Program-made: the position numbers and the translations under genes
Shown here: positions 6,141 through 33,520 of the stretch, one piece after another
Position numbering within the stretch: the stretch's first letter is position 1
How the letters are laid out: the number at the start of each line of letters is the position of its first letter
Source of the DNA: an uncultured bacterium
Lineage (GTDB): Bacteria > Abyssobacteria > SURF-5
Assembly (NCBI GenBank): GCA_964607485.1
Contig: CAZSKP010000012.1
Coordinates: 32,001 to 96,000, forward strand
Direction: 5' to 3'
Length of the DNA stretch: 64,000 bases
Notes under the pieces: model-generated
The model's database searches: none
What the model was told of the DNA's origin: nothing
Seen by the model: only the letters and a program-made list of their open reading frames with translations

Positions 6141-6210
6141 CTATTTGACAAATGGTTGTTATTGTGATAGATAATGTTAAGTATAAAGAAAAACTGACCT
6201 AGCTGCAAGG

Positions 6211-7521: not shown

Positions 7522-7711
7522 GATTGTTTATGAGGCTGCTTCGTATCGCTGCCAGCAGATGAGGGGCTAAAGCGCTTGAGGAAGGCAAGACGGCGAAACT
7601 CAGGCGTTGGGTGTGGGATGCATCCAATATATGTTGCTTTCTGGAATTGTCTCGCGTCGCTTTGTTCCAAAGAAAAGGGTTATGAAGACCTTCAGCGTGA
7701 TCGTATAGATT

Positions 7712-9367: not shown

Positions 9368-12300
9368 TCAGTCGAACTTGAGCGGTTTGGCCGAGAACGA
9401 CTCGAAGTTCACCTTGCCGAGCCCGGGGTCGTCGTCACCGTCAACTATCTGTTTCGAAATAGTCTCTTCGTTGTCGGCGCCCCAATAACAATCCGTCGTC
9501 AGGAGGGGGGAAGATTGTGATTCGTTTCCATTATAGAGCTGGCTGCCGGCATTTCCGTAGATGTTGTTCCGCTCGAAGACGAGGTATCCCACGACGAACA
9601 CTCCGCCGTTGCCCCGCTCGGGTGTCGCAAGATTCGAGGTAACGGTATTGTTGGTGAAGACTTCGTTCTCGACCGACATGCCCCAGAAGTTGATATACAC
9701 GCCGCCTCCGAATTCGGACAGCGCCTTGTTCGAAGCCACGTAGTTGCGCGTGATGCTGCTGTTGCGCTCGGCATAGATTCCCCCGCCCCGTGCGGCGCTG
9801 TTGTCGCGCACCTCGTTTGCGGTCACAAGTCCGAAGGTGGCATATATGCCCCCGCCCTCTCCGTCGGCCCGGTTGGATTCGACCTTGTTGCCCACGGCCG
9901 ACGACCTGGAAAGGTAAATGCCTCCGCCGTTGCCGGTGGCCTCGTTGGAGAAAATGTCGTTGTCCTCGACGTGTATCGTGGAAGCGTTCATATAGCCGTA
10001 TGCGAAAACGCCGCCCCCCTCGCCGTCGGCGTGGTTGTGATGAATCCTGTTGGACATGACGCGTATGACGTCATTGGTGTAGGCGTAGATGCCGCCGCCG
10101 TTGGTCGGGGCGGCGTTGTGGTGAATGTCGTTGCCCTGTATGACGGCGCCGCCCTGCCGGACGGTTATCCCGCTGCCGTCGTTATACGCTATCGAACAGT
10201 CCTTTATGAGCGGCGACGAAGACTCGACAAGGATACCCTTTCCGTATTCCAGCAGGCATCGCTCGAGCACGTTCCCGTCTCGGTAATTTCCAGCATCGTC
10301 CAGCGAGGCGTCTTCGCTCGCATCGGCGAATATAATTCTCCCCCATTTCGCGTTCGATTCGCGCGTGAAGAGTATCGGCTCCGAAGGGGCGCCCCTTGCC
10401 ACGAGCTTGCCCCGAACCATGAGGTTCTTATCGGGCGCAAGTCGCACCTGCACACCCGGCTCCATCTGGAGCACGCCCTTGGGCATCACGAGCGTGTTGC
10501 CTGTGACTTGATAGGGACTGAAGCGTTTTTCGAGCTTGACCGACGACGATATAGGCCCCTGAAGGGCCGAGGGGTTGCCGACGATGGTGGTGAAGCAGGT
10601 GGGCTTGCTCCAGCCGGACCAACTGCCGGTGGCGGTGCGATGGGCGACTCGCCAGAAATATTTCTGCCCCTCCTGCAGGCTCTCGCGCGAGATTCTGAGC
10701 GTCGAGAGTTCATCCCCCGATGTGACGGCGTCGATTGTGAGAGTCGTGAAGTCTTCCGGGAAGGCGGAAACCTGCCATCGAGATTCGACGACGTCGTGGG
10801 ACGCGCGCGGCTTGCTTGCCTCCAAGGTCGTCTGTCGCGATACACTCATCTCGGCATCGGGAGGCGAAATGTTTCTCGGGGCGGCGATGGATTCGTCGGA
10901 GCCCGTGAACTTGACGCGAACTTCCTCGGACAGCCCGGTCTCTTTGTCCTCGCCGTCAATGTATCCATACCCGGATACGGCAAACCAGTACTCGGTCCCC
11001 GGTTCGAGTCCTTCAATCGTGAAGGTCTTCTCCGGGCCGGCCTGGACCACACGGTCATACGGGTAGCCGCTTGAGGACCCGAAATAAATCCTGTGCCCCT
11101 CGAAGCCGATGTCCTGAGGGTCGTCCCACGAGAGCCGCACGCCTCCCTTTCGGGCGACGGCCACGAGGTTCATGGGTGGCGGCGGCGGCGCATCGGGCGA
11201 CAAGCGCTCCAGGTAGGGAGTGCAAACGGCAAGGCCGGCGGCCTCGTCGTCGAACCAGTCGAAGATGAGACGCAGTATCTCTTTTTCCGAACGGGCGCCC
11301 CAAAAATTGTCGTCGGCCGGGACGTCGGGCGCGCCGGTCAGGTTTGCGACGTGCAGCGCATATCCGGAATTGTTGAAGATGTTGTTCCCATGGACCGAAG
11401 GATTTCCCGACACATAGATGCCGCCGCATGCGTCCTCGCCGGCGGCCGTGTTCGCTACAACGCAGTTGCGACCGATTTCGCCCGAGCCAAAGTAATAGAC
11501 CGCGCCTCCTTCGGCCTTTTGGGCCACGTTGCGGATTATGCTGTTCGATGCGATTTCGCTGTTCTCCGCGAAAATGCCCGCGCCCTGCTGTGCGAGATTC
11601 GATTGCACCAGGTTGTCGAGAATTCTCGACTCGACGGCGTAGATGCCGCCGCCCCGCTTGGCCGCCGTGTTGCCGACGAGCGTGTTTTGAGCGACAACGC
11701 ACTTGTAGGCGTACATTCCGCCGCCGAACTGGGAGCTGGTGTTTCCGAACAGGATGTTGTTTTTGATTACCGTCTGGCTGCCGTCGGAGGCATAGGCATA
11801 CACTCCGCCGCCGCCGTCGCGCCCGCCTTCGGACGTGTTGTTATAGATGAGATTGTCGGCGATGAGCACGTTTTTGTCGCTGTACGAGATGATTCCTCCG
11901 CCGTTGCCCGAAGCGGAGTCATATGCCGTCGAGTTGCCGTAGATGCGGTTTCGCACGATTCGCGGCGAACCGAATTCGACTCGGATGCCGCTCGAGAAAT
12001 TGTTTCGCACCTCGCAATCTGCGATCAGCGGAGCGCCGAATCGCACGAAAATCCCGCGGCCCTTCTCGATGATGCAGTTCTTGAGGATACACCCTTTGAT
12101 GTACCGGCCGTCTTCGGAGAAAATTGCGTCGTCGCTGAAGTCGGTGAAGTGGAGCGTTCCCCACGGCTCTTCCGAGTGGGCGGTGAATACGACCGGCGCC
12201 TCTTCGGTTCCGACCGCCGTCAATTTTCCCCTGACCTCGAGCATCTTCTCGGGCGCGAGCTCAACCCTCGCGCCGGGCTCGATCTTGAGCGTCACGCCTT

Positions 12301-12475
12301 CCTGGAGAACAACGTTTTCCGTGATCACATACGGGCCCTTCGCGGCGGTCCAAACGGAATTCTTCGAGATGTCCTTTGTGATCGTTGTATCCGCCTGCGA
12401 ATGCGGAGGGATTGCGGCGACGATTGCCGCCGACAGGATCAAAAACATCAACTGCTTGACGCCTGATGTGCTCAT
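9368..12475 (-). CDS. Secreted right-handed parallel beta-helix repeat protein with two duplicated modules and central FN3-like domains
   Basis: Sec signal (LILSAAIVAAIPPHSQA), many N-x-A-xx-GGGIY repeats, FN3 signature (VRLSWD...FTIEGLEPGTEYWFAVS), internal duplication. Confidence 0.8.
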   Translation of the reverse strand: MSTSGVKQLMFLILSAAIVAAIPPHSQADTTITKDISKNSVWTAAKGPYVITENVVLQEGVTLKIEPGARVELAPEKMLEVRGKLTAVGTEEAPVVFTAHSEEPWGTLHFTDFSDDAIFSEDGRYIKGCILKNCIIEKGRGIFVRFGAPLIADCEVRNNFSSGIRVEFGSPRIVRNRIYGNSTAYDSASGNGGGIISYSDKNVLIADNLIYNNTSEGGRDGGGGVYAYASDGSQTVIKNNILFGNTSSQFGGGMYAYKCVVAQNTLVGNTAAKRGGGIYAVESRILDNLVQSNLAQQGAGIFAENSEIASNSIIRNVAQKAEGGAVYYFGSGEIGRNCVVANTAAGEDACGGIYVSGNPSVHGNNIFNNSGYALHVANLTGAPDVPADDNFWGARSEKEILRLIFDWFDDEAAGLAVCTPYLERLSPDAPPPPPMNLVAVARKGGVRLSWDDPQDIGFEGHRIYFGSSSGYPYDRVVQAGPEKTFTIEGLEPGTEYWFAVSGYGYIDGEDKETGLSEEVRVKFTGSDESIAAPRNISPPDAEMSVSRQTTLEASKPRASHDVVESRWQVSAFPEDFTTLTIDAVTSGDELSTLRISRESLQEGQKYFWRVAHRTATGSWSGWSKPTCFTTIVGNPSALQGPISSSVKLEKRFSPYQVTGNTLVMPKGVLQMEPGVQVRLAPDKNLMVRGKLVARGAPSEPILFTRESNAKWGRIIFADASEDASLDDAGNYRDGNVLERCLLEYGKGILVESSSPLIKDCSIAYNDGSGITVRQGGAVIQGNDIHHNAAPTNGGGIYAYTNDVIRVMSNRIHHNHADGEGGGVFAYGYMNASTIHVEDNDIFSNEATGNGGGIYLSRSSAVGNKVESNRADGEGGGIYATFGLVTANEVRDNSAARGGGIYAERNSSITRNYVASNKALSEFGGGVYINFWGMSVENEVFTNNTVTSNLATPERGNGGVFVVGYLVFERNNIYGNAGSQLYNGNESQSSPLLTTDCYWGADNEETISKQIVDGDDDPGLGKVNFESFSAKPLKFD

Positions 12476-12535
12476 CTCACGCCCCCAAAATCATGCCTCA
12501 TCCATTTCCCTGTTCTTGAGAAACACTTTGCCGCG

Positions 12536-14740
12536 TCAGTAGTCCATCTGAGTCCAGTCGATCTTCTCTTCGGTTTCTTCCTCGGGTTTGGGCTCAGGAA
12601 CCTTTTCCATGACCATCATGTATTTCGCCACGTAGTCGATCCACATCTCGGCATCCGACACCCTGGGGACGCCCTCGGGAGTGTAGAACACGTAGGGCAT
12701 CTTCGTGCCGGTGCCCGCATACTTGTCGGGGTTTCGCATGAAATTCTTCATCCACTCGAACCTCAGCCTGGATTTTGCGAGCATGAGGTTTATGGACAGG
12801 TCTTCGAGCTTCACGCCCTCGGGCAGCCCCGCGTCGAGCGAGACGGGATGGCATTGCATGCACTTGTCGCCGATGAAGCGATATTCGCCCATGTCGATTT
12901 CGATCTGGTGAATCTCCTCCTTTTGAGGGAGAAGGAGATAGGGCACGCGCGCGTTTGCGGGCGACGCGGCCTTCACGGAGAAGTAGTCTATCAGCCCTTG
13001 CGCCTGCTCGTATGCGAAAGAGAAGGTTGGCATCCGTATCTTGAGCCATGGCCTCATCGGAACAGGTTTGCTGAGATACTGGAAGGCCCACTGGGGCTGC
13101 ACCTTCTCCCCCTCTCCCACCAGCCGGGGAGGAACGTATGTTTTCAGCGCAATGAACTCATCTATGCGCGGCTTGACGTTTTCATCGAACATGTGGCAGC
13201 CGCGGCAGTTGCTTTCCGTTACGGTCCACTCTCCGTCCCGCCCCCTGCGCTGGTCCTGGGTGGCGGCGAGCATGTACTTTTCGGGCAGCTTGAGCCGGTC
13301 ATTGTATAGGTAGAAGGTGGTGAGAGCTTCCACTTCGCCTTCGTCGAATTTATACTCGGCCATCTTCAGCGGCATGTCTTTGGTTTCATAAATTTTCGGG
13401 GTCTTGATCTTGTTGTATATCCAATCCCACTTCGTGTGTTCGACCGTCGAATCGCCAAACGGCAACTCATCCAGCGCCTTCTTGGCGACCTCCGCCACCT
13501 CCACACCCGGAGCGGGCGCCTTTGCGAGGCTCTTGACGCTATGGCAACCGTAGCATCCCTGCAACTGGACCAGTTTCTCGCCGTTCTGCACCGAGGCTCC
13601 TTCGGTGGTCAGCTTCTCGGAGTCCACCATCTCCTTGTTGCCCTTGAGCGTCATCAGATATGCGGTGAGGTTCAGTCGGTCGGACTCTGTGATGTCGAGC
13701 TTCGGCATCCGCGTGTCGGGATTGTATGCCTTGGGGTCCTTGAGGTATTCGAACACCCAATCGGGCCTCAGTTTCGTGCCCGCGTCGGCAAGGTTCGGCA
13801 CGCGGCGCGTGAGCGAATCCTCGTCCGCCTTCGAAGAATGGCACGCCCTGCAGCCGAGGTCGGTAAAGAGCTTTTCGCCTTCCTGGGCCGATGCCTGGGT
13901 GAGATCGACCTTCGGGTATTCCTTGTCCGACTTCAAGGACAGCACGAAGGCCGTCAGGTCGCGGATTTCCGCGTCGGTCAGTTTGAACGTGGGCATGATG
14001 GTCTTCGGGCGCATCTTTTCCGGAGTCCGAAGCCAGCTCAGCATCCATTTCTCGTTCGACAGCTTATCGACGAATCCGTCGAACGGCGGCGCAAACTTCG
14101 GAAGGTTTTCAAATCCTCGCGCGCCGTGGCAGGCGTAGCAGCCGTATTTTTCGAAAGCCACCCTGCCGCCCTCAATCCTCTCCGCGCCGTCGAGGCCGTA
14201 CGAGGTCTCGTGACATTCGATGCAGGTGGCCTGAAGGTACTCGGCGGGAATGAGCGGGTCGAACCACGTTTCCTCCAGCCCGTGCGCGGCGCGAGTCGAA
14301 GCGCCCACCCCCTGCCCCTTATGGCACACGGTGCAGCCGAATCTCTCGGCCGGGTGCTGTTCCAGTATGCGGCCGGGATGAGTCCTGAAGGGCTCCGGCG
14401 CATCGGAGAAAAGCGGGTTCGCGATTCCCAGGTGACAGGTTGTGCAGAGGTCCCTAACGTTCGCGTCGGGCAAGAATATCTGGCGCAGGTGGGGCCTGGT
14501 GGCGTTCACCTCGCGGAGCTGCTTTTTCCACTTCTCCTTGCTTGCCGGATTATTATTCTCTTCCGGGTCGTGGAGCTTTGCGAGTATCTTCTCCTTGTAC
14601 AATTCATTGAATTCCCGCTGGTACTTGACCCATTCCTTCTCCGCCTCCCTCTGAAACGCACGATAGCTCAGCGCCGCAAACACTACCATCGCCGCGGAGA
14701 ATAACACGCGCTGGCTGGTTTTCGCTCTGATCAGACCCAT
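12536..14740 (-). CDS. Membrane-anchored octaheme cytochrome c (cytochrome c partner of a Rieske/cytochrome b complex)
   Basis: Eight CxxCH motifs (CTTCH, CTVCH, CIECH, CYACH, CRACH, CYGCH, CRGCH, CMQCH) and an N-terminal TM helix. Confidence 0.92.
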   Translation of the reverse strand: MGLIRAKTSQRVLFSAAMVVFAALSYRAFQREAEKEWVKYQREFNELYKEKILAKLHDPEENNNPASKEKWKKQLREVNATRPHLRQIFLPDANVRDLCTTCHLGIANPLFSDAPEPFRTHPGRILEQHPAERFGCTVCHKGQGVGASTRAAHGLEETWFDPLIPAEYLQATCIECHETSYGLDGAERIEGGRVAFEKYGCYACHGARGFENLPKFAPPFDGFVDKLSNEKWMLSWLRTPEKMRPKTIMPTFKLTDAEIRDLTAFVLSLKSDKEYPKVDLTQASAQEGEKLFTDLGCRACHSSKADEDSLTRRVPNLADAGTKLRPDWVFEYLKDPKAYNPDTRMPKLDITESDRLNLTAYLMTLKGNKEMVDSEKLTTEGASVQNGEKLVQLQGCYGCHSVKSLAKAPAPGVEVAEVAKKALDELPFGDSTVEHTKWDWIYNKIKTPKIYETKDMPLKMAEYKFDEGEVEALTTFYLYNDRLKLPEKYMLAATQDQRRGRDGEWTVTESNCRGCHMFDENVKPRIDEFIALKTYVPPRLVGEGEKVQPQWAFQYLSKPVPMRPWLKIRMPTFSFAYEQAQGLIDYFSVKAASPANARVPYLLLPQKEEIHQIEIDMGEYRFIGDKCMQCHPVSLDAGLPEGVKLEDLSINLMLAKSRLRFEWMKNFMRNPDKYAGTGTKMPYVFYTPEGVPRVSDAEMWIDYVAKYMMVMEKVPEPKPEEETEEKIDWTQMDY

Positions 14741-14762
14741 CTGTATCTCTGGCGCAATGCGC

Positions 14763-15512
14763 CTAAATGTTAAACCATGGTGTCGTCAATATGTACCGGA
14801 CATTGAACACAAGCCGCAGGATAATCTTCACGACCACACCGTACATCAACAGCACAAGCGTAAAGGCGGTGATGTACCTGACAGCGCCCATCTTCCTGAA
14901 GAGTCCCTTAGACAGGAGTGCCGGGAGCGTCAGCCCCGCTGCAAAGTACAGAACCAGAAAGCCGATGCCGAGCCAGCGGGGCAGATTGACGAGCGTTTCC
15001 TCAGCGCTCTTGGCAACGGACCAGTCTTCCCACAGCCAATAGAACTGCCAGTTGGGTCCGCGCAGAAACTGGCCGACCAGAATCAGCACTATCCACATCG
15101 CAAAGCCGAAGACAAAGACCGAGACGGCCGCCTTGCGCTTGCGGAAACTGTATTCGCCCACCCCGGCCGTGCTCGTGTCGAGGTATGGGATGAGCATGAG
15201 CCCGAATATTATCAGCAGAGGAATCACCACGCCGGCAATCCACGGGTCGAAGTACACGAGCAGCTCCTGGAGCCCGACGAAATACCACGGCGCCTTTGCC
15301 GGGTTCTCCGTCTTGTTGGGGTCGGCAATGCTCAACAGCGGCGCGTTGGCCGCCATCGACCACGCGAGCAACACGACGGAGGCGATGACGACGGCAATCA
15401 GCTCCTTGATGACGAGATGGGGCAGAACGAACTCGTAATCGTTGTCGAGTCTTTTTTCGGGAGCGTGCATCGCGGACCCCTTTGCGTCAGAGCGGATGAG
15501 AGATTCCGCCAT
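14763..15512 (-). CDS. Cytochrome b C-terminal subunit (subunit IV/PetD-like)
   Basis: [16 protein letters not shown] (variant of the PEWY Qo motif), IPYLD, several TM helices; overlaps the cytochrome b6 gene. Confidence 0.87.
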
Positions 15513-16248
15513 CTTTTCTCACCCGCCAGAAATGAACGAATATGAGGACGGTCGCGACCAGCGGCAGCAGTATGCAATGAAGCACATAGAACCGGAGCAG
15601 TGCGTTCTCTCCGACGACGGTATCTCCCAAGAGCAGGTAGCGGACATCGTTGTTGGCCCTGATTCCGAGCAGCGAGTGGAACGGTCCCTCGGCGCCAACG
15701 AAGGGAGCGGCTCCCCCCATCTTGGTGCCGACGGTAATCGCCCAGAAGGAAAGCTGGTCCCACGGCAGCAGGTATCCCGTAAAGCTGAGCAGAAGCGTCA
15801 GCACCAGGAGGCACACGCCCACCACCCAGTTGAATTCCCTGGGCGGCTTGTAGGAAGCCGTGAGGAAGACGCGGAGCATGTGCATCATCACCAGTATGAC
15901 CATCGCGTGCGCAGCCCACCTGTGCAGGTTCCTCATTATCGTCCCGAACTTGACCGCGTGCTCGAGCAGGCGCATGTCGAGGTACGCATATTCGACCGTG
16001 GGACGATAGTAGAACATCAGCAGCACGCCCGTTATGGTCTCCACGATAAACATGAAGAAGGTGAGTCCGCCGAGACAGAACGTGTGGCTGATCTTCAGAC
16101 CTTCCCTGTGAACCTTGGGCGGATGCAGATGGAGGAAAAAATTAGAAACGACCGTGAGCACCCGGTTGCGGGGGGTGTCGCTAAATTTGTGGCGGACTAT
16201 GGAACGCCATAGCTGACTCTCAGTGATCTTTTTCGAGATCTTGCTCAT
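15487..16248 (-). CDS. petB: Cytochrome b6-type subunit (cytochrome b N-terminal)
   Basis: [47 protein letters not shown]-x14-H and the GISHPL terminus. Confidence 0.92.
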
Positions 16249-16342
16249 TTCTGCCAGTGTTTGGGGTCATCATACCTGTCAAGGTGTTTCCTCGACTCCC
16301 GGCCGGTTGCTCAGGGAAGAGACGCGTGCTCCCGACCCCGGC

Positions 16343-17053
16343 CTATTTCCTGTCGGGATAAAGCGACCTGAGATATTTCAAGTCTGCTGCGCAAAAATTC
16401 GCCGAAAGTTCGATGAGGGCCCAGTAGAAAGACACAGCCGGCTCGCAGAGCTTGGGGATTTTCGCATGGAACACTTTCTCGGTTCTCTGAAAAAGCTGCG
16501 GCAGCCACTTCGTCGGGTGGCGGTCCAGGAAATCGATTTCCGCAAAACAATAAGGGGAAGGGTCCTCGTCGCGCTGGAGCGCGAGCACCTCTTTGAACGC
16601 CAGGTAGTGCATGAACTCGAGCTCCGTGGTGATATGGTCGGGCACTTCCCGTTCGCGCGCCTCGGCCACGCTGAGGCCGAAGTGGTTGTAGAAACGCACG
16701 AGGTCTTCCATGTTTGTCATTCTGTCGGCGACATATTGCCCCTCGTACAGCGGGCACGGCGGACCTCCGGGACCGGCATCGAAGACGCGGACAAACTCGG
16801 CCTCGAAGTCGTCCTGCGATACGTGCTTGAGCAATTGGCCCGAGAGCCCTCCTTCCTCAGCCGCGACTTCAAACGGAACATCATGCAAGACAGCCAGAGC
16901 CGATTCCAGATAGTCGCCGTGCTTTGCCATCTTGAAGAAATCCTTGTCGGGATACCGAAAAGATTCCGCCAGGAACCGGTACATCTGGCTCCGTCGGGCC
17001 CGCGCCATTTGGTCGGGGTCTTCTATGTTGTCGATCTCGGCGAACGTCTCCAT
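16343..17053 (-). CDS. TorD/DmsD-family molybdoenzyme maturation chaperone (EbdD-like)
   Basis: PLYEGQY and EVPDHITTELEFM motifs; follows the beta subunit. Confidence 0.88.
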   Translation of the reverse strand: METFAEIDNIEDPDQMARARRSQMYRFLAESFRYPDKDFFKMAKHGDYLESALAVLHDVPFEVAAEEGGLSGQLLKHVSQDDFEAEFVRVFDAGPGGPPCPLYEGQYVADRMTNMEDLVRFYNHFGLSVAEAREREVPDHITTELEFMHYLAFKEVLALQRDEDPSPYCFAEIDFLDRHPTKWLPQLFQRTEKVFHAKIPKLCEPAVSFYWALIELSANFCAADLKYLRSLYPDRK

Positions 17054-17078
17054 CGCTCCCCTCCTTGACTGCGCATAT

Positions 17079-18236
17079 TCACACCGCAGTGATCGGGTCC
17101 TTATCGAACGGTCCGAACATCTTGTGCCATCGTTTCGCTATGAGTATCTCCATCAACTCCGACTTCTCTCCGTCGCGTGTGCGCTCCATTTCGCGCTGGA
17201 GCAGGTTCAGCGACTGCTCGACCTCCGGGCCGAACAGATGCACCATGTACTTCAGCGGAATGCGGGGCTTGGATGGGTCGAGCTTGCCCGAGTCATCCAG
17301 CCGTGGAGGCGCGAGCGGCGGAACGTAGAACACGTTGGGCTCGGTTCCGAACTGCGGGAACAGCGGCAGCGCGACTTTCCACTTCTTCACCAGTTGATAG
17401 ACCGGTCCCTGCTCGTTGTCGAGGTAATCCACGAACCGGACGCGTCCGGTGCACTGACGTGCGCAGGCGTTGGCCACCCCTTTCTCTATCCTAGGATAAC
17501 AGAAGATGCACTTCATGCTAGTCAGCGTCTCGAAGTTGAAGTATATCTTCTTGTACGGGCACGACTCCAGACAGAACCTGTAGCCCTTGCAGCGGTCCTG
17601 GTCTATCAAGACGACGCCGTCCTCTTCCCGCTTGTAGATGGCGTGCCTCGGACACGCGTCGATACAAGGAGGGTAGGTGCAGTGGTTGCAGATTCTGGGG
17701 AGATAGAAGAAGAAACTGTTGGGATAGTTGAAGGCGGCGGACCAATCATACGGCCCCTGGTCTTCATCCCAGTTCATGGCCCAGTCGGGTTCGGTGCCGT
17801 CGGGGTTCTTCGCCGTCAGCTTGACGGTGCCCCACTTGCTGGTCACCAATTCGTCATGATTGAACTTCCAGAGGTCGCCGAATTCCTTCCGGGTGGGCAA
17901 TTTGCCCAGAATCGGCTCGCGGACGCTCTTCTTCTCAAACTCGTCCTTGAACTCTTTGACCTTGTATCCTCCGCCGAGGTCTTCGACGTTCTTCGGAGTT
18001 CCCTTGCCGGGCATGGTGTTGACCGTGTTCCACCACATGTATTCCCGGCCCTCTTTCTTGGTCCATGTGTTCTTGCATGCCATGCTGCAGAGCTGGCATC
18101 CGACGCATTTGTTCAGGTCCATCACCATCGCAAGCTGGTGGTTGGTTCTGCGCAGCTCGTCTTTTATGGCGAGAAATTCCTTTGCGAGTTCTTCCTCTCT
18201 CTTCTTGTCTTCGGGGGTTGGTTCTATTACCGCCAT
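17079..18236 (-). CDS. Type II DMSO-reductase-family beta (Fe-S) subunit, EbdB/NarH-like
   Basis: DLNKCVGCQLCSMACKNTW, YMWWNTV, LPRICNHCTYPPC...CP, CKGYRFC...CPYKK and KCIFCYPR...C: the three [4Fe-4S] plus one [3Fe-4S] pattern. Confidence 0.93.
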   Translation of the reverse strand: MAVIEPTPEDKKREEELAKEFLAIKDELRRTNHQLAMVMDLNKCVGCQLCSMACKNTWTKKEGREYMWWNTVNTMPGKGTPKNVEDLGGGYKVKEFKDEFEKKSVREPILGKLPTRKEFGDLWKFNHDELVTSKWGTVKLTAKNPDGTEPDWAMNWDEDQGPYDWSAAFNYPNSFFFYLPRICNHCTYPPCIDACPRHAIYKREEDGVVLIDQDRCKGYRFCLESCPYKKIYFNFETLTSMKCIFCYPRIEKGVANACARQCTGRVRFVDYLDNEQGPVYQLVKKWKVALPLFPQFGTEPNVFYVPPLAPPRLDDSGKLDPSKPRIPLKYMVHLFGPEVEQSLNLLQREMERTRDGEKSELMEILIAKRWHKMFGPFDKDPITAV

Positions 18237-18282
18237 GAGCTTTTTCTCCTGTTCATGCTCCGGGCTTCAGCCAATACCATTG

Positions 18283-18963
18283 CTAGGCCAACACGAGGTC
18301 GCGCCACTCTTTCGAGAAGGCCTTCACGCCGCCACGCTCGCCTGCGGATCCTTCCCATGCCGCAATGCCGATGGATTTCTTCCCGCCGGCGGCGATCTGT
18401 ATCGCCTGCTCCGGCGCCTCGAACGCGCGCCCGACGATCACCGTCCATTCTCCGTCCTTCCATGCGGAATTGGCGAAGATAGAGCTGTCGTCGGTGTAGA
18501 GGCTCGTTGAGAGCCCTTCGGAAACCTGGTTCTTCGGCTTGTTCTCGAAATCGGCCCGCCAGTACCACGCATTCGTGGGAGCCTCCTGCGTTCCCATTTC
18601 TTTTATCGGAGTGTCCTTGCCATCCTTCATGGGGAACAGCAGGGCCACGCCGTCGGGAAACGTGTTGAGGTCGCCGATTGTGAGGTTTGCCTCTTTGCTC
18701 TTCCACCTCAGCCGGAAGAAGATGTCCTTGCCGTTGTGGAGGGTCTTCAAGACGACCTGCGCCACCTTGCCCAGCTCCTTTTCATCGCGAGTCGCCTTGA
18801 TATACGGAGAGGGCTGGTTCGCCAGAGGAGTCGACGCCATTTCGATCGTGTATTCATTGCCGTTGGACCATACGGGCGAATCCAGTTTGAGCAATTCGTC
18901 CCTCGAGGCGGAGACCCTCGCCGCCACTATCTGGCCAACCAAAGCCGTTTCATTCTCAGCCAT
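18283..18963 (-). CDS. Soluble heme b gamma subunit, EbdC-like
   Basis: HNGKDIFFRLRW, FPDGVALLFP, EMG (Met ligand), WEGSAGERGGVK (Lys ligand); no TM helix. Confidence 0.88.
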   Translation of the reverse strand: MAENETALVGQIVAARVSASRDELLKLDSPVWSNGNEYTIEMASTPLANQPSPYIKATRDEKELGKVAQVVLKTLHNGKDIFFRLRWKSKEANLTIGDLNTFPDGVALLFPMKDGKDTPIKEMGTQEAPTNAWYWRADFENKPKNQVSEGLSTSLYTDDSSIFANSAWKDGEWTVIVGRAFEAPEQAIQIAAGGKKSIGIAAWEGSAGERGGVKAFSKEWRDLVLA

Positions 18964-18993
18964 AAGACATTGCCCCCTTACCTTTCACCAAAC

Positions 18994-21903
18994 TTATGCC
19001 TTCTCAACCTCGACCGATATCGCGCGGTCGATAGGCTGGGTGCACCAGTTCCATCGATAATAATTCAGATGACCGTAGCCCGCTGCCAGGTCGAGCCACT
19101 TCATCATGCCCGGGATCGCCGTGTCGTAGCTCTTCCACTTCTCAAACTGGTACGGCTCCCAGGCGTGATAGATTATCACCTGGCCCGGCCTCGGCCCCTT
19201 TTCCGAACGGGCCGCCGAGGTCAGCTTGACGTGAACCGTGAAATCGTCGAAGTCGTTGTGCACACGAACGAGGTCGCCGTCCTTGATGCCCCGCTTCTTT
19301 GCATCTTCGGCGTTCATGAACATGAACGGGCGGCCCTGGTGCGTGCGTGAGAGCACGTTGTCGGTGATCCATATCGAATGGATGCTCCACCTCTGGTGGC
19401 CGCTCGTCATGCGGAGCGGGTAGTTGCCCCCCATCTTCGGGTTGTCCTTGTGGACGGGGAAGCCCTCTCCGGCTTCGAGGAACCAGTCGTGGTCGATGTA
19501 GAAGCTGATCCTGCGATTGTACGTGGGATACGGGATCTTCTTCGGGCCGGTGTGGAACGTGAGCGGCACAATCGGCTCGTCGGGCTTGATCTCGGTCATG
19601 AGATGTTTGGCGATTATGTCCATGTCGGACACTTTCGTGAAGCGCACGATGCCGTCCCTGCGAAGAGTTTCGAGGGTCGTGTCCTCCGGCAGTGTGCCGA
19701 GCTTGGCGCTGAGCTTGAGCGCGTCGTCGAGCGTTTCGTCGCCGCTCGTACGCTCCAGCGTCTGTCGTTTGACCAATTGCGTCATGTCAAATTCAACCCC
19801 TTGGCGGGATTTGAACTTGGTGTAGTTCCTCTGCTCAGCAAGCTGCTTCATCCTCTCAGCCATCAGGCGGCCGACCTCCCATTCCTCTTTGGCTTCGCCG
19901 AGGGGCTGAACGGCCGCCTCGGTGAGCGTCAGCCACGGCACGTGAGGAGTGGGAAAACGTGTGTCGGTCTTCTCGTAGAACCCCGCCCCGGGCATGACCA
20001 TGTCGGACAGAAGCGCCGTAGTGCTCCAGCGGGTTTCTATCGTGAAGATGAATTTGTACTGCTTCCACAGTTCCGGATATATGTTCTTCCACCAGCCGCG
20101 GTTTTTTCGAGCGGGACTCGTGCCCATGAAGCAATAAACGAGCGGCTTCTGGTCGGGCGCCGGCCGCACGAGGCCGTCCCACCAGCCTTTGTCGATCGCC
20201 TCGTTCATGTATTCGTCGAAGCTGCGCTTCATCGTTGGGCAGTGCCACTCTTTCTTGTTCCATGTGTCGCGGTAATTGGAATGGAAGTAGTAGAGGAAAG
20301 CCGGCGGCACCATGCCCAGCCGTTCTCTGTCCGCGTTGCGCTCAAGCTCCCTCTGAATAATCTCGTCGGTTAGCTCGGGGTCTTTGGCCTTGAGCATGAA
20401 CTTGTCGAGCCTCGATTCGCCATACTGGAGGAGCGACGTCAGTCCCCTCCTTTCGCGGATCATCAGCGCCGTCGCCCCGTCGAACAGCGACTCGCTCCAG
20501 CCGCGGATTCCGCTGCCCTTGTTGCCCACGCTTCCGGTGAGCGCCAGCAGCAGGCACATCGAACGCTCCATCAGGTCGCCGTGGTAGTACTTGGACGAGT
20601 TCCAGCCGACGAGCACCTGCACATGGCCGCGCGCCTTCCACGCCTTGTGCGCAACACGCCGGATGGTGTCGGGATGCACGCCGCACAGCTCCGACGCCTT
20701 CTCGGGAGTGTAATCGCGGTCGAGTATCTCTTTATAGACGCCGAAACCGGGCCTCACCTCGACGCGTTTGCCGTCGTTCAGCGTGACGGTGTACGTGCCC
20801 TCGAGGGCGGGGTCGCACGGAAGCGCGAGCGTGCCGCGCGGCGCCTTGACGGGCGCATTGGTCGCCGGGTCCCAGAAATACATCTGGTCTTCCAATCCGC
20901 CGCCGGTCAGGTCGGTCTCGCGGAGGAACTTCTTGGTGTCCATCCTGATGAGCAGCGGGAAATCGGTCTGCTCTTTTAAGAACGACTTGTCGTACGTGCC
21001 CTCGGATATGAGCACCTGCGCCATTCCGAGCCCGAACGCCGCGTCGGCGCCAGGCTCCACCGGAACCCATTCGTCGGCGTGGACCGCCGAGGGCGAATAG
21101 TCGGGCGCGATGGTGATCACCTCGGTGCCGTTGTACCGCGCCTCGGATATGAAGTGGTACGACGGGATGCGGGTGTACACGGGGTTCATGTGCCAGATGA
21201 GGATGAGCTTCCCGAAGAACCATCCGTCGCACGAATCGCAGAACTGGAACTTGCCGAACGTTTCGTAAACGCCCTTGTTGAAATCTCCGATGGTGGAGTT
21301 GAGGTCGAGCTCGGTGGCGCCCAGGCCGCTGAAGAACCGGAATATCGTTATCAGATGTATCCAGCCCCCGTTTCCCGGGCCCGGCTCATAGATAATGGAT
21401 TCCGGACCCTCGGTCTGGATGGCGTCCATCAGGTGTGTGCACGTCGTGTCTATGGCTTCCTCCCAGGAGATCCTTTTCCACTTGCCTTCGCCTCGTTCGC
21501 CCACGCGCTTCATCGGATACTTCACGCGGTCGGGGTTGTACATCATGTTGCTGTACGAACAGCCCTTCTGACAGCCGCGCGGATTCCAGTCGGGGCCGGT
21601 CGCGTCTATGACCGGATACTTGCCCGCCTGCTCCTCGCGCCACACGACGCCGTCCTTGGTGTACACACGCCACAGGCAGTTTCCGGGATAGCAGTCCACG
21701 AGATGTGTGCCGTAGGTGATCTTGTCCCACTTCCATTCATCTCTGTGGAGGCCCTCCCAATTCTTGTACTCCCATTTCTGGAAGACCTTCTCGGTGGCGT
21801 GGGCCACTCCTCCGAGGAAACCCAGCGAGTCGAGCGAAAGCGCCAGCGCCGTAGTACCCGTAATCTTCAGGAACTGACGCCTCGTGAATCTGAACTCCGA
21901 CAT
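18994..21903 (-). CDS. Tat-exported Mo-bisPGD catalytic alpha subunit of the ethylbenzene dehydrogenase / steroid C25 dehydrogenase-like clade
   Basis: Tat signal FTRRQFLK; FS0 motif GTHLVDCYPGNC...NPRGCQKG; RVKYPMKRVGERGEGKWKRISW; IGDF with candidate Asp Mo ligand; HQRWSIHS. At 969 aa it is shorter than NarG. Confidence 0.92.
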   Translation of the reverse strand: MSEFRFTRRQFLKITGTTALALSLDSLGFLGGVAHATEKVFQKWEYKNWEGLHRDEWKWDKITYGTHLVDCYPGNCLWRVYTKDGVVWREEQAGKYPVIDATGPDWNPRGCQKGCSYSNMMYNPDRVKYPMKRVGERGEGKWKRISWEEAIDTTCTHLMDAIQTEGPESIIYEPGPGNGGWIHLITIFRFFSGLGATELDLNSTIGDFNKGVYETFGKFQFCDSCDGWFFGKLILIWHMNPVYTRIPSYHFISEARYNGTEVITIAPDYSPSAVHADEWVPVEPGADAAFGLGMAQVLISEGTYDKSFLKEQTDFPLLIRMDTKKFLRETDLTGGGLEDQMYFWDPATNAPVKAPRGTLALPCDPALEGTYTVTLNDGKRVEVRPGFGVYKEILDRDYTPEKASELCGVHPDTIRRVAHKAWKARGHVQVLVGWNSSKYYHGDLMERSMCLLLALTGSVGNKGSGIRGWSESLFDGATALMIRERRGLTSLLQYGESRLDKFMLKAKDPELTDEIIQRELERNADRERLGMVPPAFLYYFHSNYRDTWNKKEWHCPTMKRSFDEYMNEAIDKGWWDGLVRPAPDQKPLVYCFMGTSPARKNRGWWKNIYPELWKQYKFIFTIETRWSTTALLSDMVMPGAGFYEKTDTRFPTPHVPWLTLTEAAVQPLGEAKEEWEVGRLMAERMKQLAEQRNYTKFKSRQGVEFDMTQLVKRQTLERTSGDETLDDALKLSAKLGTLPEDTTLETLRRDGIVRFTKVSDMDIIAKHLMTEIKPDEPIVPLTFHTGPKKIPYPTYNRRISFYIDHDWFLEAGEGFPVHKDNPKMGGNYPLRMTSGHQRWSIHSIWITDNVLSRTHQGRPFMFMNAEDAKKRGIKDGDLVRVHNDFDDFTVHVKLTSAARSEKGPRPGQVIIYHAWEPYQFEKWKSYDTAIPGMMKWLDLAAGYGHLNYYRWNWCTQPIDRAISVEVEKA

Positions 21904-21958
21904 AAGAACCTCCTTGCTCCAAAAACCCCCTGGCCGCGGCGCCTCGCGCGGCCCTTTG

Positions 21959-23035
21959 TCACGGTTTCAGCGCAATCTTGATAACGTTATCGAGTTTTTT
22001 GTCAAACATTTCGTATGCTCTCACACCTTCGTCCAGCGACATGGTGTGAGTGATCAGCGGAGTAGTGTCGAGCAGTCCCGCCTCGATTATTTTCAAGAGT
22101 CTGTCCATGTGCACGACATTGACGAGGCCCATGGTAACGCCTATGTTCTTCACGGCGAGCTGCGGCATCAAGAGTTCCTGCGCTTCTTCAAAAAGGCCGA
22201 CGATCGACACGTTCCCGCCCGGCCTGACGGCCTGGAAGGCGGCATCCAGAGTGGGTTTTATCCCGACGGCCTCTATCGCCACGTCCGCTCCGCTGCGGCT
22301 GGTGAATTCCTCGAGCAGGTCCTGGGGCGCTCCGCCCGTCAGGTCCTTTATCTGCTCGACCGCATCGGTCTTGGAGGGATCGATCGTATGCGTCGCCCCG
22401 AGCTTCTTCGCCACTTCGAGCCGGTTTGCTATGGGATCGACGACGATCAGCTTGGACGGGCTGAAAAGCCTTGCGCACGCCGTCGCGCAGAGCCCCACCG
22501 GGCCGCCCCCGAAAACGGCGACCGCATCGCCCGGCGCCGTCTTCCCGTTGATTACGCCGAAATACCCGGTGGACAGGATGTCGCCCACGAACAGCACCTG
22601 TTCGTCGGTCAGCCCGTCGGGAATCTTGTGCATCCCGATCTGAGCGAACGGAACGCGCACGTATTCGGCCTGAGCGCCGACGAAGCTACCCAGTATCGGT
22701 CCGCAGCCGTATATGCCCCCCCGGACGCATTTGGCCGCCAGACCCTTCAGGCACATCTCACACTTTCCGCACTGCACCGTGGCCGCCACCGCCACCCGGT
22801 CGCCGACCTCGAATCCTTCGACCCGGTCGCCGAGCTCTTCGACGACGCCGACGAATTCGTGCCCGATGGTATCGCCGGGCATCATCGGCGCGGCGCCGCG
22901 GACCATGTGGATGTCGCTTCCGCAGATACTCGTCAGCGTGACCTTGACGATCGCGTCGTCGGGGTCCTGCAGCGTGGGTCTGGCGACATCGGCCACCGCC
23001 ACCTTATCGACTTCTTCGAACACTATCGCTTTCAT
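21959..23035 (-). CDS. Zinc-dependent alcohol dehydrogenase (MDR family)
   Basis: ICGSDIH, GHEFVG, CGKCEMC-x7-C and FGGGPVG motifs; no signal peptide. Confidence 0.92.
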   Translation of the reverse strand: MKAIVFEEVDKVAVADVARPTLQDPDDAIVKVTLTSICGSDIHMVRGAAPMMPGDTIGHEFVGVVEELGDRVEGFEVGDRVAVAATVQCGKCEMCLKGLAAKCVRGGIYGCGPILGSFVGAQAEYVRVPFAQIGMHKIPDGLTDEQVLFVGDILSTGYFGVINGKTAPGDAVAVFGGGPVGLCATACARLFSPSKLIVVDPIANRLEVAKKLGATHTIDPSKTDAVEQIKDLTGGAPQDLLEEFTSRSGADVAIEAVGIKPTLDAAFQAVRPGGNVSIVGLFEEAQELLMPQLAVKNIGVTMGLVNVVHMDRLLKIIEAGLLDTTPLITHTMSLDEGVRAYEMFDKKLDNVIKIALKP

Positions 23036-23298
23036 GTTTCCCCGTTAGTAAATGGAACCATCGTTATGGCGTTCCACGGACAGCCCTCTATGCGGGCGCC
23101 GAGGTAACCGCGCGTCGTGCAACTGCGGCACCCGGTACATTTGTCCGGATTTACCCGCATGCGCTTAAAAAGAAAACTGCTTTCGTCGGCCACATACTCG
23201 AGCGCTCCCTCGGCCGGACAGTACATCTTGCAGACGGGCGTGCCCGCACAGCCCGTGCAGCTTTCGTCTATGGAGGCGACGAAGCGCTTTTTCGCCAT
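23032..23298 (-). CDS. 2[4Fe-4S] ferredoxin with insertions
   Basis: CTGCAGTPVCKMYCP and CTGCRSC-x12-CP; ATGA overlap with the ADH start. Confidence 0.85.
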   Translation of the reverse strand: MAKKRFVASIDESCTGCAGTPVCKMYCPAEGALEYVADESSFLFKRMRVNPDKCTGCRSCTTRGYLGARIEGCPWNAITMVPFTNGET

Positions 23299-23327
23299 GG
23301 GCCTGGTTTGCCCTCCACAAGGCCCGC

Positions 23328-23915
23328 TCAGCCGACGCGAACGAAAACCTTTTGCCTCTCGAATTCCTGTATGTCAAACACGACGCTGGTATCGACGACC
23401 AGGTTGCCGCGGTCGTTTGTGTATATCTTGAGCCTGTCGAGCGGCCTGGGCGCCGGGCCAGCGAAGTTGACTCCGTTTGAATGGAACTGGCTGCCGTGAC
23501 ACGGACACTTGTAGATGCCCAGTCCCGGAAACCAGTTCACCGTACAGCCGAGGTGCGTGCATCGCGCGAAAAGCGCATATATCCGCGAAGTTTCGCGGAT
23601 GACAAAAAACCGGTTCTGTTTCTTCCACCTGGGCTCGACGTAGATGACGCCGTACGCGTCGGGGTCGGCGCCGGTGGAGAAATCGTCAACCGTTCCTATT
23701 TCGAAGGTGCTCGGCGGGTGAAACACGACGGAGGGCGAGAAAAAGCGGACCGTCTCGACGGCGCCCGCAGCCGTCAGGCCGAACAGCGTTCCCCATCCGA
23801 TGACGGAGAGGCTCTTCTCCAACAGCTCGCGCCGCGTTATGCCGAATGAGGACGCCGCGGCCGCTGCATCGCTCAACGTTGTCTTGGCTTCCGTCATGTG
23901 TGTGCTCACGGTCAA
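23328..23915 (-). CDS. Rieske [2Fe-2S] subunit of a Rieske/cytochrome b complex (start possibly 23897)
   Basis: CTHLGC and CPCHGS boxes, GPAPRPL, and a Tat-like TRRELL followed by a TM anchor. Confidence 0.93.
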   Translation of the reverse strand: MTVSTHMTEAKTTLSDAAAAASSFGITRRELLEKSLSVIGWGTLFGLTAAGAVETVRFFSPSVVFHPPSTFEIGTVDDFSTGADPDAYGVIYVEPRWKKQNRFFVIRETSRIYALFARCTHLGCTVNWFPGLGIYKCPCHGSQFHSNGVNFAGPAPRPLDRLKIYTNDRGNLVVDTSVVFDIQEFERQKVFVRVG

Positions 23916-23930
23916 GCCACGGGCAAAAAC

Positions 23931-24677
23931 TCAAATCCGCTCGCGCTCGAGCTCGCGGCTTATCTTGAGTATCAGCCTCTTCCGAAGTATCCCGATGAGG
24001 CTGTTCAGCAGGTTTATGCCGCTTTCGGCCATTTCGACCATCTCATCGAATGACAACCTGCCCGTGACGCTCCTGGAGAAAAACCTTACCTCTTGCTTTG
24101 CCAGGACCTCGATCAGGTCCGAGTACATCTTCAGGAACTCCGACGTAAAGCCGGCCTCTCTCGTATAGCCCGCCTCGCGGAGCTTATTGAGTATTTCCAC
24201 TATTCTCACGCAATCCTCGTCGAAAAGCCCGTCGGGCCGGCGCGAGATGACGCCAATGCGCTCCAGCTCCTCCACCTCGTCAATGCTGACCCCTGCGCGG
24301 GCGCTCAATTGCTGTATGTCCGGGGGTTGAAACTTAGGAAGGGCGGAAAGGTTCTTGAAGAGCTTCCCCTCGAGCTGCAGGAGGGTCTTGACCTCCTCGC
24401 TGTCCATTGGGTTTTCGTTCTCCTCGAGCATCTGCTTGATTATGCTGAGCGGGAGAAACCTCTTTTCCTGCAATTCCCTTATCAGCTTTATTCTGCCGAC
24501 ATAGCTCTGGTCGTAATAGGCCATGTTGCGATGCGTCTTGAGCGGTTTCGGCAGGAGCCCCTCGTTGATGTAATACCGAATCGTGCCTGGCGGCACACCA
24601 GTCATTTTCGACAGTTCGCGCATCTTGAGGAGCTTTTCGCGGGCGGAGGGTTTGCTTCTTGCAGAAGAGAAATCCAT
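23931..24677 (-). CDS. MerR-family transcriptional regulator
   Basis: MRELSKMTGVPPGTIRYYINEGLLP HTH and a second HTH-like segment. The tracked TTG start at 24782 coincides with the -35 hexamer, so ATG 24677 is preferred. Confidence 0.88.
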   Translation of the reverse strand: MDFSSARSKPSAREKLLKMRELSKMTGVPPGTIRYYINEGLLPKPLKTHRNMAYYDQSYVGRIKLIRELQEKRFLPLSIIKQMLEENENPMDSEEVKTLLQLEGKLFKNLSALPKFQPPDIQQLSARAGVSIDEVEELERIGVISRRPDGLFDEDCVRIVEILNKLREAGYTREAGFTSEFLKMYSDLIEVLAKQEVRFFSRSVTGRLSFDEMVEMAESGINLLNSLIGILRKRLILKISRELERERI

Positions 24678-24722
24678 ATCCCTAAAATCGCATTGCCGAG
24701 TGTATGGAGAGGGATGGTTAAA

Positions 24723-24738
24723 AGTTAACAGTTTAACT
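24723..24738. promoter_or_regulatory. Candidate operator (inverted repeat)
   Basis: AGTTAA-N4-TTAACT just downstream of the predicted -10, overlapping a second GTTAA-N3-TTAAC at 24717-24729. Confidence 0.5.
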
Positions 24739-24753
24739 ATGTACCTTGCGCAT

Positions 24754-24782
24754 AACTTACCATATAGCAGAGGTTTTGTCAA
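24754..24782 (-). promoter_or_regulatory. sigma70 promoter of the MerR/Rieske/molybdoenzyme operon
   Basis: Minus strand TTGACA-N17-TAAGTT with TGG immediately before the -10. Confidence 0.65.
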
Positions 24783-32763: not shown

Positions 32764-33520
32764 ACAGACAATTCCGGAGAGACAGACCGTCTGTTTCGCC
32801 GGTATGGAGTTCAGGTTGAACTCGCTCCGCGTGAAGCTCGACTCGTTCAGAAGCCAACTGCAGTATCTTCGTCGAAAAGGGTATCGAAGCGTCGGGCTGG
32901 ATGAGGTGCTGCGCGCGAGAGAATCGGGCGACGACGCGAAGGCCAAGATTGTGGCGATAACGTTCGACGACGGCTTCAGCGACCTGCACCTTCCCACCAG
33001 GTATATCCTCGAAGAGTTCGGTTTCACGGCGACCGTGTTTCTCGTGGTCGGAAGGATAACCGACCAAGGACGCAACGGCTTTCTGACGTGGCGTCAAGTA
33101 CGCGAAATGAAGCGCTCCGGGTTTTCCTTCGGCGCGCACACGCTCACCCATCCGTTCCTCACGTCGCTCAGTCCTGAGGAGGCCTTCCACGAAATATCCG
33201 AATCGAAGCGGATAATCGAAGAAGAGATTCAGACCGAAGTGAGATTCTTCTGCTACCCGTTCGGCGATTTCAACCCGCAGGTGGTGGAGCTTGTGAGACG
33301 AGCGGGCTTCAAAGGAGCGGTCGTCACACCCACGCGGCCCGGCATCGCGGAGACCGCCTTTACCATGAAGCGGGTCGGAGTGAACAGGGGCAATTCGATG
33401 CTCACTTTCAAGCTGAAGCTGAACGGCGACTACGACGTGTTCAGAGACAGCCCCGTGCTGTCTCAGTTCAGTCATCTCAGGAGACGGATTCTTTTGTCGT
33501 TGGCAAGGGAGGCCCTATGA
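32732..33520 (+). CDS. Polysaccharide deacetylase (CE4/NodB, IcaB-like)
   Basis: ILAYHGV, ITFDDGF, GAHTLTHP and FCYPFG motifs; ATG at 32732 inside the longer tracked ORF. Confidence 0.9.
   Translation: MVSILAYHGVEQTIPERQTVCFAGMEFRLNSLRVKLDSFRSQLQYLRRKGYRSVGLDEVLRARESGDDAKAKIVAITFDDGFSDLHLPTRYILEEFGFTATVFLVVGRITDQGRNGFLTWRQVREMKRSGFSFGAHTLTHPFLTSLSPEEAFHEISESKRIIEEEIQTEVRFFCYPFGDFNPQVVELVRRAGFKGAVVTPTRPGIAETAFTMKRVGVNRGNSMLTFKLKLNGDYDVFRDSPVLSQFSHLRRRILLSLAREAL

Follow-up and report, generated by a model that had tools for sequence, protein, structure and literature searches.

A putative ahy-type hydroxylase operon with an embedded alcohol dehydrogenase gene in a Candidatus Abyssubacteria genome

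Known hydroxylases and the operon in the window

In Aromatoleum aromaticum, the ethylbenzene dehydrogenase (EBDH) EbdABCD is paired with the (S)-1-phenylethanol dehydrogenase Ped. A hydroxylation route has also been put forward for anaerobic alkane degradation, and it rests so far on hints from the genome and proteome of a single cultured sulfate reducer. According to this proposal, made for Hxd3, the alkane is converted to a 2-alkanol and then to a ketone, followed by C3 carboxylation (PMC3653055, PMC7803848; papers are cited here by PMC number and for individual passages). Proteomics of alkane-grown cells implicated the Ahy enzyme (a meeting abstract cited in PMC3653055). In the passages cited, no gene is assigned to the second step, the oxidation of the alcohol. 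Here we describe a 12-gene minus-strand operon (positions 9368-24782) in a stretch of 64,000 nucleotides (nt) from an uncultured bacterium (GenBank assembly GCA_964607485.1, contig CAZSKP010000012.1), referred to below as the window. The central part of this operon encodes an EbdA-like molybdenum enzyme and a zinc-dependent alcohol dehydrogenase (ADH), which an earlier, sequence-only reading had singled out as a two-gene route acting on a substrate that it left unnamed. The host belongs to Candidatus Abyssubacteria: its RpoB is 90% and 89% identical to those of Candidatus Abyssobacteria SURF_17 and SURF_5, respectively, and ∼65% identical to RpoB of Hydrogenedentes. The genome (4.7 Mb) is 97.5% complete.

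With moderate confidence, we read the operon as encoding an AhyABC-type methylene hydroxylase, a private Rieske/b6/octahaem complex and a cytoplasmic ADH that together would convert an alkane-like substrate to a ketone. Judged by its sequence, the system is an ahy-type locus of the sort already proposed for anaerobic alkane hydroxylation and not a new kind; the novelty lies in the integrated ADH and in the host lineage. The recruitment of an ADH in front of the catalytic subunit (alpha) in another phylum gives independent comparative support for an oxidisable, most simply secondary, alcohol as the product.

Open reading frame (ORF) calls and domain searches placed both genes of the sequence-only reading in a run of 12 same-strand genes with intergenic spacings of -26 to 94 nt. 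Both genes were real, but the Rieske, ferredoxin, cytochrome b6, subunit IV, octahaem cytochrome, MerR and beta-helix genes of the same operon had been missed. The genes are given below in operon order, with three motifs of alpha after its own line (aa, amino acids; Tat, twin-arginine translocation; MDR, medium-chain dehydrogenase/reductase; Mo-bisPGD, molybdenum-bis(pyranopterin guanine dinucleotide)).

23931..24782, minus strand: opening gene of the operon, for a regulator of the MerR family, 283 aa, with 15 nt between it and the Rieske gene downstream (PF13411 MerR_1, 78.7 bits)
23328..23915, minus strand: membrane-anchored Rieske [2Fe-2S] subunit that carries the twin-arginine signal TRRELL (PF00355; CTHLGC, CPCHG)
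23032..23298, minus strand: small 2x[4Fe-4S] ferredoxin, 88 aa, no signal peptide (Fer4_7)
21959..23035, minus strand: Zn-dependent MDR alcohol dehydrogenase, 358 aa, predicted to be cytoplasmic and of the NAD type (ADH_N, ADH_zinc_N, motifs)
18994..21903, minus strand: alpha, Tat-exported Mo-bisPGD catalytic subunit, AhyA/EbdA-like, 969 aa (2ivf_A, 771.5 bits)
21865-21885, minus strand: twin-arginine motif TRRQFLK of alpha (translation)
21676..21705, minus strand: FS0 cluster motif HLVDCYPGNC of alpha, residues 67-76 (translation; aligned to EbdA)
21280..21291, minus strand: IGDF of alpha, residues 205-208, with Asp207 as the counterpart of the EbdA Mo-ligand Asp223 (translation, alignment)
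18283..18963, minus strand: gamma, haem b protein, 226 aa (PF09459 EB_dh, 112 bits; 2ivf_C, 119.9 bits)
17079..18236, minus strand: beta, four Fe-S cluster protein, 385 aa, 15 Cys (Fer4_11; TIGR03478, 468.6 bits; NF042979, 429.4 bits)
16343..17053, minus strand: delta, NarJ/TorD-type assembly chaperone (PF02613 Nitrate_red_del; TIGR03482, 143.1 bits)
15487..16248, minus strand: cytochrome b6-type subunit, 253 aa (PF00033, 144.5 bits; NF040969 ExtP, 271 bits)
14763..15512, minus strand: subunit-IV-like membrane protein, 249 aa (PF00032; NF040970 ExtQ)
12536..14740, minus strand: membrane-anchored octahaem c-type cytochrome, 734 aa (8 CxxCH, N-terminal hydrophobic stretch; Cytochrom_C and CBB3 domains)
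9368..12475, minus strand: closing gene of the operon, for a secreted protein of 1035 aa that contains Fn3 and two beta-helix blocks (PF13229, fn3; signal-like N-terminus)

In phmmer comparisons with solved structures, alpha aligned end to end with EbdA (2ivf_A, 771.5 bits, E 1.1e-230) and scored 472 bits against the perchlorate reductase PcrA, ∼203 bits against NarG and 148 bits against nitrite oxidoreductase (NXR, 7b04_B). On these scores, assignments of alpha to perchlorate reductase and to NarG were both rejected, the latter also because alpha reached 81 bits on the narG model, whose cut-off is 1084. The FS0 motif and the IGDF aspartate claimed by the sequence-only reading both translate as described and align to EbdA: HLVDC-YPGNC lies opposite HLNIC-WPQGSC, Asp207 opposite Asp223 and, in addition, Lys438 opposite Lys450. 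The Tat motif, the FS0 motif, Asp207 and Lys438 are conserved in the alpha family, and HLVDCYPGNC, TIGDFN and KYYHGDL were common to essentially all 37 relatives compared, so that they are family traits and not specific to this gene. The likeness to EbdABCD extends to the overall architecture and to gamma, which aligned over its full length with EbdC (119.9 bits) and was weakly similar to NxrC (7b04_C, 55.6 bits). EbdC Met108 and Lys201, positions that we take to be the haem ligands, lie opposite Met123 and Lys214 of gamma. The Tat signal, FS0 motif, Mo-ligand Asp, four-cluster beta, EB_dh-type gamma and NarJ-like chaperone together place the enzyme in the type II dimethyl sulfoxide (DMSO) reductase family, and they support the assignment of alpha as an EbdA-like, Tat-exported molybdenum hydroxylase-type enzyme. 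The subunit order alpha-gamma-beta-delta, noted before from the sequence, was borne out by the PF09459, Fer4_11 and Nitrate_red_del matches and differs from the A-B-C-D order of ebd. Ethylbenzene dehydrogenase proper was rejected, as all four subunits fell under the EbdABCD equivalog cut-offs (EbdA NF042978, 807.5 against 2000; EbdB NF042979, 429.4 against 740; EbdC, 141.7 against 400; EbdD, 111.1 against 360).

An alternative function would be the respiratory reduction of nitrate or some other oxyanion, with quinol feeding the enzyme through a forward-running Rieske/b6/octahaem complex and with the ADH unrelated to it. Periplasmic reductases of the type II DMSO reductase family draw electrons from cytochrome c and bc complexes, which counts for this explanation. 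Furthermore, 'narIHGK' was reported in the original Abyssubacteria paper (PMC6121073), in which the words hydrocarbon and ethylbenzene do not occur, yet the present genome holds no better NarG candidate than this alpha, its best match to the narG model (81 bits against 1084). Against a reductase stand the order of the alpha scores given above (EbdA well ahead of perchlorate reductase and NarG), the translational coupling of the ADH within the operon, and the presence of the orthologous locus in a lineage with proteomics of alkane-grown cells (PMC3653055). We consider this function very unlikely. Because no better NarG was found, the 'nar' genes reported for Candidatus Abyssubacteria may themselves be an ahy-type operon, to the extent that this one genome can speak for them. 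AhyA hits in Abyssubacteria were reported with CANT-HYD (PMC8767102).

Relatives of the hydroxylase and its possible substrate

Of 8000 candidates scored in a word-based search with alpha, 2321 proteins had E ≤ 0.001. Among those with names, the best matches came from Candidatus Abyssobacteria SURF_5 (82% identical) and from metagenome-assembled genomes (MAGs) that carry the labels Poribacteria or Lindowbacteria. In species-representative genomes we located 75 loci, onto which the twelve window proteins were placed by tblastn; L077-L079 came from metagenomes. We distinguished three kinds of locus. The full operon including the ADH was found in the window clade; in L001 and L017, grouped with this kind, the contig ends inside alpha and the downstream genes are present. 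The second kind comprises 24 Thermodesulfobacteriota-type loci that have the same operon without the ADH (alpha 62-68% identical): 40-834 nt separate alpha from a preceding ferredoxin or Rieske gene, without an adjoining ADH match. These loci include L021, from a Desulfosudis oleivorans MAG (alpha 65%), and L024, from Desulfococcus sp. 4484_241 (alpha 63%), whose name marks it as the source MAG of the second AhyA reference in PMC7803848. The Rieske-ferredoxin pair of L042 and L046 has been relocated behind delta, also with no adjoining ADH. The third kind consists of stand-alone alphas in relatives from the window lineage and of multi-alpha clusters in Chloroflexota, none of which has the Rieske/b module.

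Apart from the ADH, the window arrangement (Rieske-ferredoxin-(ADH)-alpha-gamma-beta-delta-cytochrome b-subunit IV-octahaem-beta-helix) matches the Desulfosudis and Desulfococcus ahy loci gene for gene, and the FS0, Asp and Lys motifs of alpha are shared as well. MerR homologues also flank many of the related loci, and copies of the beta-helix protein that are 34-61% identical occupy the same position in many of them (NosD-like in L021 and L033). The window differs from the Desulfosudis and Desulfococcus loci in its host, a member of Candidatus Abyssubacteria with AprA and without DsrA, in its place in a sister clade, and in the inserted MDR ADH, which is present at none of the 24 loci there.

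We built a midpoint-rooted FastTree phylogeny of 84 alphas, that is, the window alpha and 83 ORFs matching at least 850 query residues; partial hits, L005 (a read-through with X or stop) and the EbdA, CmdA and steroid C25 dehydrogenase (S25dA) references were left out. The window alpha fell into a clade of 15 rows (support 100) in which 4 operons with the ADH are joined by 11 stand-alone paralogues. Sister to it was a Thermodesulfobacteriota clade of 25 rows (support 100) that holds L021 and L024, and the joint clade of 40 rows also had a support of 100, with the Chloroflexota-type paralogues outside it. The active-site stretches that we compared were nearly identical between the window clade and the reference clade. 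Because of the tree and the shared locus architecture, we take the window enzyme, which stands in a sister lineage, as the ahy locus's orthologue by synteny. This means that the substrate class is less obscure than the sequence-only reading had it, as alpha probably belongs with the AhyA lineage, a presumed hydroxylase of alkanes at the C2 methylene.

The same combination of enzyme and ADH could nevertheless serve a substrate other than an n-alkane, with hydroxylation at a secondary carbon of the alkyl side chain of an aromatic, or of an isoprenoid, a steroid-like or another lipid. Six alpha ORFs in the tree come from one related MAG (two in L006 and one each in L008, L013, L014 and L015), the AhyA references group in a clade apart from that of the window, and stand-alone alpha paralogues occur in varied contexts, which suggests a range of substrates. 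In addition, ADHs like that of Thermus sp. ATN1 (TADH) take cyclic and double-ring ketones (PMC6215098). On the other hand, alpha is a single-copy gene in the window genome and sits there in the full operon shared with the alkane-degrader lineage, and the active-site stretches compared are nearly the same in both clades. We regard a non-alkane substrate as rather unlikely.

The stand-alone paralogues (L002, L004, L005, L006, L007 and L011-L015) are 78-82% identical to the window alpha, and gamma, beta, delta and ADH genes are not nearby. Two lie in tandem in L006, the one in L004 is near 2-hydroxyacyl-CoA dehydratase/BcrAD-type genes and that in L014 is preceded by MerR and alpha/beta hydrolase genes. 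The L011 match is in two pieces (10001-11449 and 11587-13041, within 10001-13041) and that in L005 (L005:10001-12898) reads through X or stop; either may be a broken copy or an assembly gap.

The alcohol dehydrogenase and its distribution

The ADH carries PF08240 (92.3 bits) and PF00107 (90.7 bits), the zinc motifs CGSDIH, GHE and a structural C89-x2-C-x2-C-x7-C103, and the nucleotide motifs GGGPVG and VVD200. It has no N-terminal signal, and these features make it a member of the MDR family. ORFs, domains and zinc motifs thus agree with the signal-less zinc MDR gene 55 nt upstream of alpha that had been described from the sequence. Its best solved relative is TADH (4cpd, 274 bits over residues 1-348), which is moderately distant and shares both zinc sites and the NAD-type fold with it. 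The formaldehyde dehydrogenase structures 1kol and 4jlw reached 131-133 bits over residues 4-283 only. Assignment as a glutathione-independent formaldehyde dehydrogenase was rejected (136 bits on TIGR02819, whose cut-off is 636.95; TADH is much closer). The scores (133 bits, and 274 bits for TADH) thus do not point to the formaldehyde-specific ADH that the sequence-only reading had named as telling against its pathway. TADH, which is NAD-dependent, takes aldehydes as well as aliphatic, cyclic and double-ring ketones, and it has no operon link to a molybdenum hydroxylase in the passages cited (PMC6215098). The predicted succession of a periplasmic hydroxylase and a cytoplasmic NAD-dependent alcohol dehydrogenase resembles that of EbdABCD and Ped, whereas the window ADH is a zinc MDR and not a short-chain dehydrogenase/reductase (SDR).

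The stop codon of the ferredoxin gene and the start codon of the ADH gene share the sequence ATGA (a 4-nt overlap), and therefore the ADH gene is an embedded member of the operon and not just a neighbour. It lies between ferredoxin and alpha at all four visible junctions of the window clade (L008, L009, L016 and L077; 65-81% identical), and the ferredoxin-ADH pair was also seen on two short contigs, L078 and L079, the latter with MerR and Rieske genes in addition. As the ADH is missing at 24 of 24 ferredoxin-alpha junctions of the sister clade and from both rearranged loci, it does not belong to the system generally. Absence of the ADH from homologous loci had been named in advance as a finding against the pathway; it was encountered in the sister clade, while the window's own clade keeps the gene throughout. 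On this comparison, the ADH is an insertion specific to the window lineage, which backs the pathway logic without being a universal component. No ADH or SDR gene was found within ∼10 kb in the flanks of the sister-clade loci L021, L024 and L033. Upstream in L024 there are 3-hydroxyacyl-CoA dehydrogenase/enoyl-CoA hydratase and thiolase genes.

With the ADH as the query, 28 metagenome loci were recovered, three of them at ≥74% identity and all three in the operon; the remaining 25 relatives (≤49% identical) had no Rieske, ferredoxin or alpha gene nearby. Within the protein database, the clade of ADHs at ≥75% identity did not extend beyond the window lineage and was followed by matches at ≤66% (the L008 ADH is 66% identical). 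The nearest relatives outside the clade were generic ADHs (46-52% identical), the named ones mostly from Firmicutes. Such relatives, together with the 24 empty sister-clade junctions, would fit a passenger gene that was inserted between ferredoxin and alpha in one lineage and has a general role with alcohols or aldehydes instead of catalysing the second step of the pathway. However, the position of the ADH has been kept in all four clade loci at 65-81% identity, with the flanking genes similarly diverged, its start overlaps the upstream gene, and every one of the three close homologues from the ADH-side search is located in the operon. A passenger role is therefore improbable in our view.

In the sequence-only reading, the product was an oxidisable, non-tertiary alcohol arising from methyl or methylene hydroxylation. 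The first part is reasonable, given an operon-embedded, TADH-like ADH that is kept at four of four junctions in its clade, and is weakened by the absence of the gene from the sister clade. As for the second, methylene hydroxylation is retained and a methyl group is less favoured, because the operon contains no aldehyde dehydrogenase gene. By the same argument, which is a weak one, we favour a ketone over a primary alcohol as the route's product. The ADH is small and easy to express, and the range of compounds that it accepts could show what the whole system acts on.

Electron transfer, host genome and the rest of the window

Copies of the Rieske protein that are 51-81% identical are present upstream of alpha in related loci. 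In cytochrome b6, H109, H123, H224, H239 and Cys58 of the CLGG motif, presumably the haem ci Cys, were invariant in 28 sequences. With CTHLGC and CPCHG in the Rieske protein, the four His and the CLGG Cys in cytochrome b6 (PF00033) and a subunit IV (PF00032), the module has the hallmarks of a Rieske/cytochrome b6-type quinol:cytochrome c oxidoreductase. All 8 Cys of the ferredoxin were invariant in 29 sequences and, wherever it was detected, its gene directly follows the Rieske gene, also in the rearranged L042 and L046; tblastn gave no ferredoxin match in L025. A complex prediction for ferredoxin, cytochrome b6 and subunit IV scored 0.02 against a mark of 0.32, which allows no verdict and is evidence neither way. 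The same genome has a second Rieske/cytochrome b6/subunit IV locus (C5:155006-159136, L107:507-4637), with multihaem cytochromes alongside and without the small ferredoxin; its subunit IV has 142 aa, and the hydroxylase-linked one is ∼100 aa longer. To our knowledge, the ebd operon has no private Rieske/b6 complex, unlike the window operon. A literature search that included the locus tags Dole_0193-0198 (supplements unopened) found no paper on a linkage of Ahy to a Rieske/b complex.

In the proposed pathway, the periplasmic enzyme would take two electrons from an aliphatic, alkane-like substrate and add a water-derived OH to a methylene carbon. The resulting lipophilic secondary alcohol would cross the membrane into the cytoplasm and be oxidised by the NAD-type ADH to the ketone, on which a ketone carboxylase encoded elsewhere could act next. 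By way of the Fe-S chain and the haem b of gamma, the two electrons would reach the octahaem cytochrome and go from there either downhill to a cytochrome-c-dependent oxidase or uphill to the quinone pool through a reversed Rieske/b6 complex. We favour reverse flow to the quinone pool, because hydroxylase and Rieske/b6 module have been inherited together in two phyla, with lineages of sulfate reducers among them. A parallel has been proposed for nitrite oxidisers, where NXR delivers electrons to cytochrome c and part of them are driven through a bc complex in reverse (PMC3578206). Like the window enzyme, NXR is a type II DMSO-reductase-family enzyme run oxidatively, with high-potential electrons entering at cytochrome c (PMC3578206); unlike it, NXR has a distant alpha (7b04_B, 148 bits), while the window enzyme would act on an organic substrate and has its bc complex encoded in the same operon. 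The strict co-inheritance of hydroxylase, Rieske, b6, octahaem and ferredoxin genes offers a testable answer to how such high-potential electrons are handled.

A candidate for the carboxylase, which the sequence-only reading had suggested to look for elsewhere in the genome, was found on C3 (C3:153453-157910, L076:6453-10911). It is an acetone-carboxylase-like pair consisting of a Hydantoinase_A gene and a Hydantoinase_B-Acetone_carb_G fusion of 785 aa, preceded by a gene for a regulator with helix-turn-helix and cupin domains and followed by methylmalonyl-CoA-mutase-like and acyl-CoA dehydrogenase genes.

Several points weigh against the reading of the operon as an alkane-to-ketone module. 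Alkane hydroxylation by Ahy has been biochemically shown for no member, and the enzyme is called putative (PMC7803848, PMC3653055, in the passages cited). The window clade is sister to the AhyA reference clade and not nested within it, and two residues of EbdA are replaced in alpha by a hand count on the alignment (His192 by Pro176 and Trp87 by Tyr72). The NCBIfam subfamily scores of all four subunits are just below the cut-offs (alpha TIGR03479, 893.3 against 984.75; beta TIGR03478, 468.6 against 480.7; gamma, 133.8 against 169.85; delta TIGR03482, 143.1 against 152.3). The ADH is lacking at the 24 sister-clade junctions, as it is from L042 and L046, and there are no carboxylase, aldehyde dehydrogenase or beta-oxidation genes in the window. 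The genome also encodes six glycyl radical enzymes resembling pyruvate formate-lyase (open frames of ∼800-865 aa on C8, C6, C25, C55, C62 and C2), which could provide other hydrocarbon routes. With respect to the electrons, the direction of the favoured flow through the Rieske/b6 complex is not readable from sequence, and a distant cbb3-like CcoN/CcoO oxidase pair is present in the genome, so that reverse electron flow is not forced here.

We also considered a bolder proposal, in which the Rieske/b6/subunit IV/octahaem module and the ferredoxin would form a dedicated uphill device that carries the high-potential electrons of oxygen-free C-H hydroxylation to the quinone pool, driven by the proton motive force or by confurcation with low-potential electrons that come from the cytoplasm via ferredoxin at the haem ci side. 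The insertion of the ADH would then make a self-contained hydrocarbon-to-ketone module, and the ADH might be a source of low-potential reductant. This proposal is speculative and, in our judgement, doubtful; if true, it would explain how anaerobes without a high-potential acceptor afford EBDH-type hydroxylation. Among candidate electron sinks, dissimilatory sulfite reductase was rejected, as DsrA was not over the cut-off anywhere in the genome. AprA is present (913 bits).

The rest of the window contains an exopolysaccharide cluster and trehalose genes. A promoter and terminator scan of the window gave a count of sites no higher than in shuffled sequence and was not used. Proteins resembling the formylglycine-generating enzyme of sulfatases (FGE-sulfatase, SUMF1-like) are encoded kilobases from the operon both in the window (2439-3773, minus strand) and in the Desulfosudaceae locus L033 (L033:2781-3788), which may be coincidence. 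Within the exopolysaccharide cluster, three genes for B12-binding radical S-adenosylmethionine enzymes (33517-35058, 43828-45216 and 52099-53574, plus strand) are surrounded by glycosyltransferase, Wzy-like, Wzx-like, Wza and Wzc-like genes. Finally, positions 4001-8000 have a G+C content of 0.44-0.48, compared to ∼0.59 elsewhere, and contain genes for a rubrerythrin-like protein and a GT87-family glycosyltransferase.

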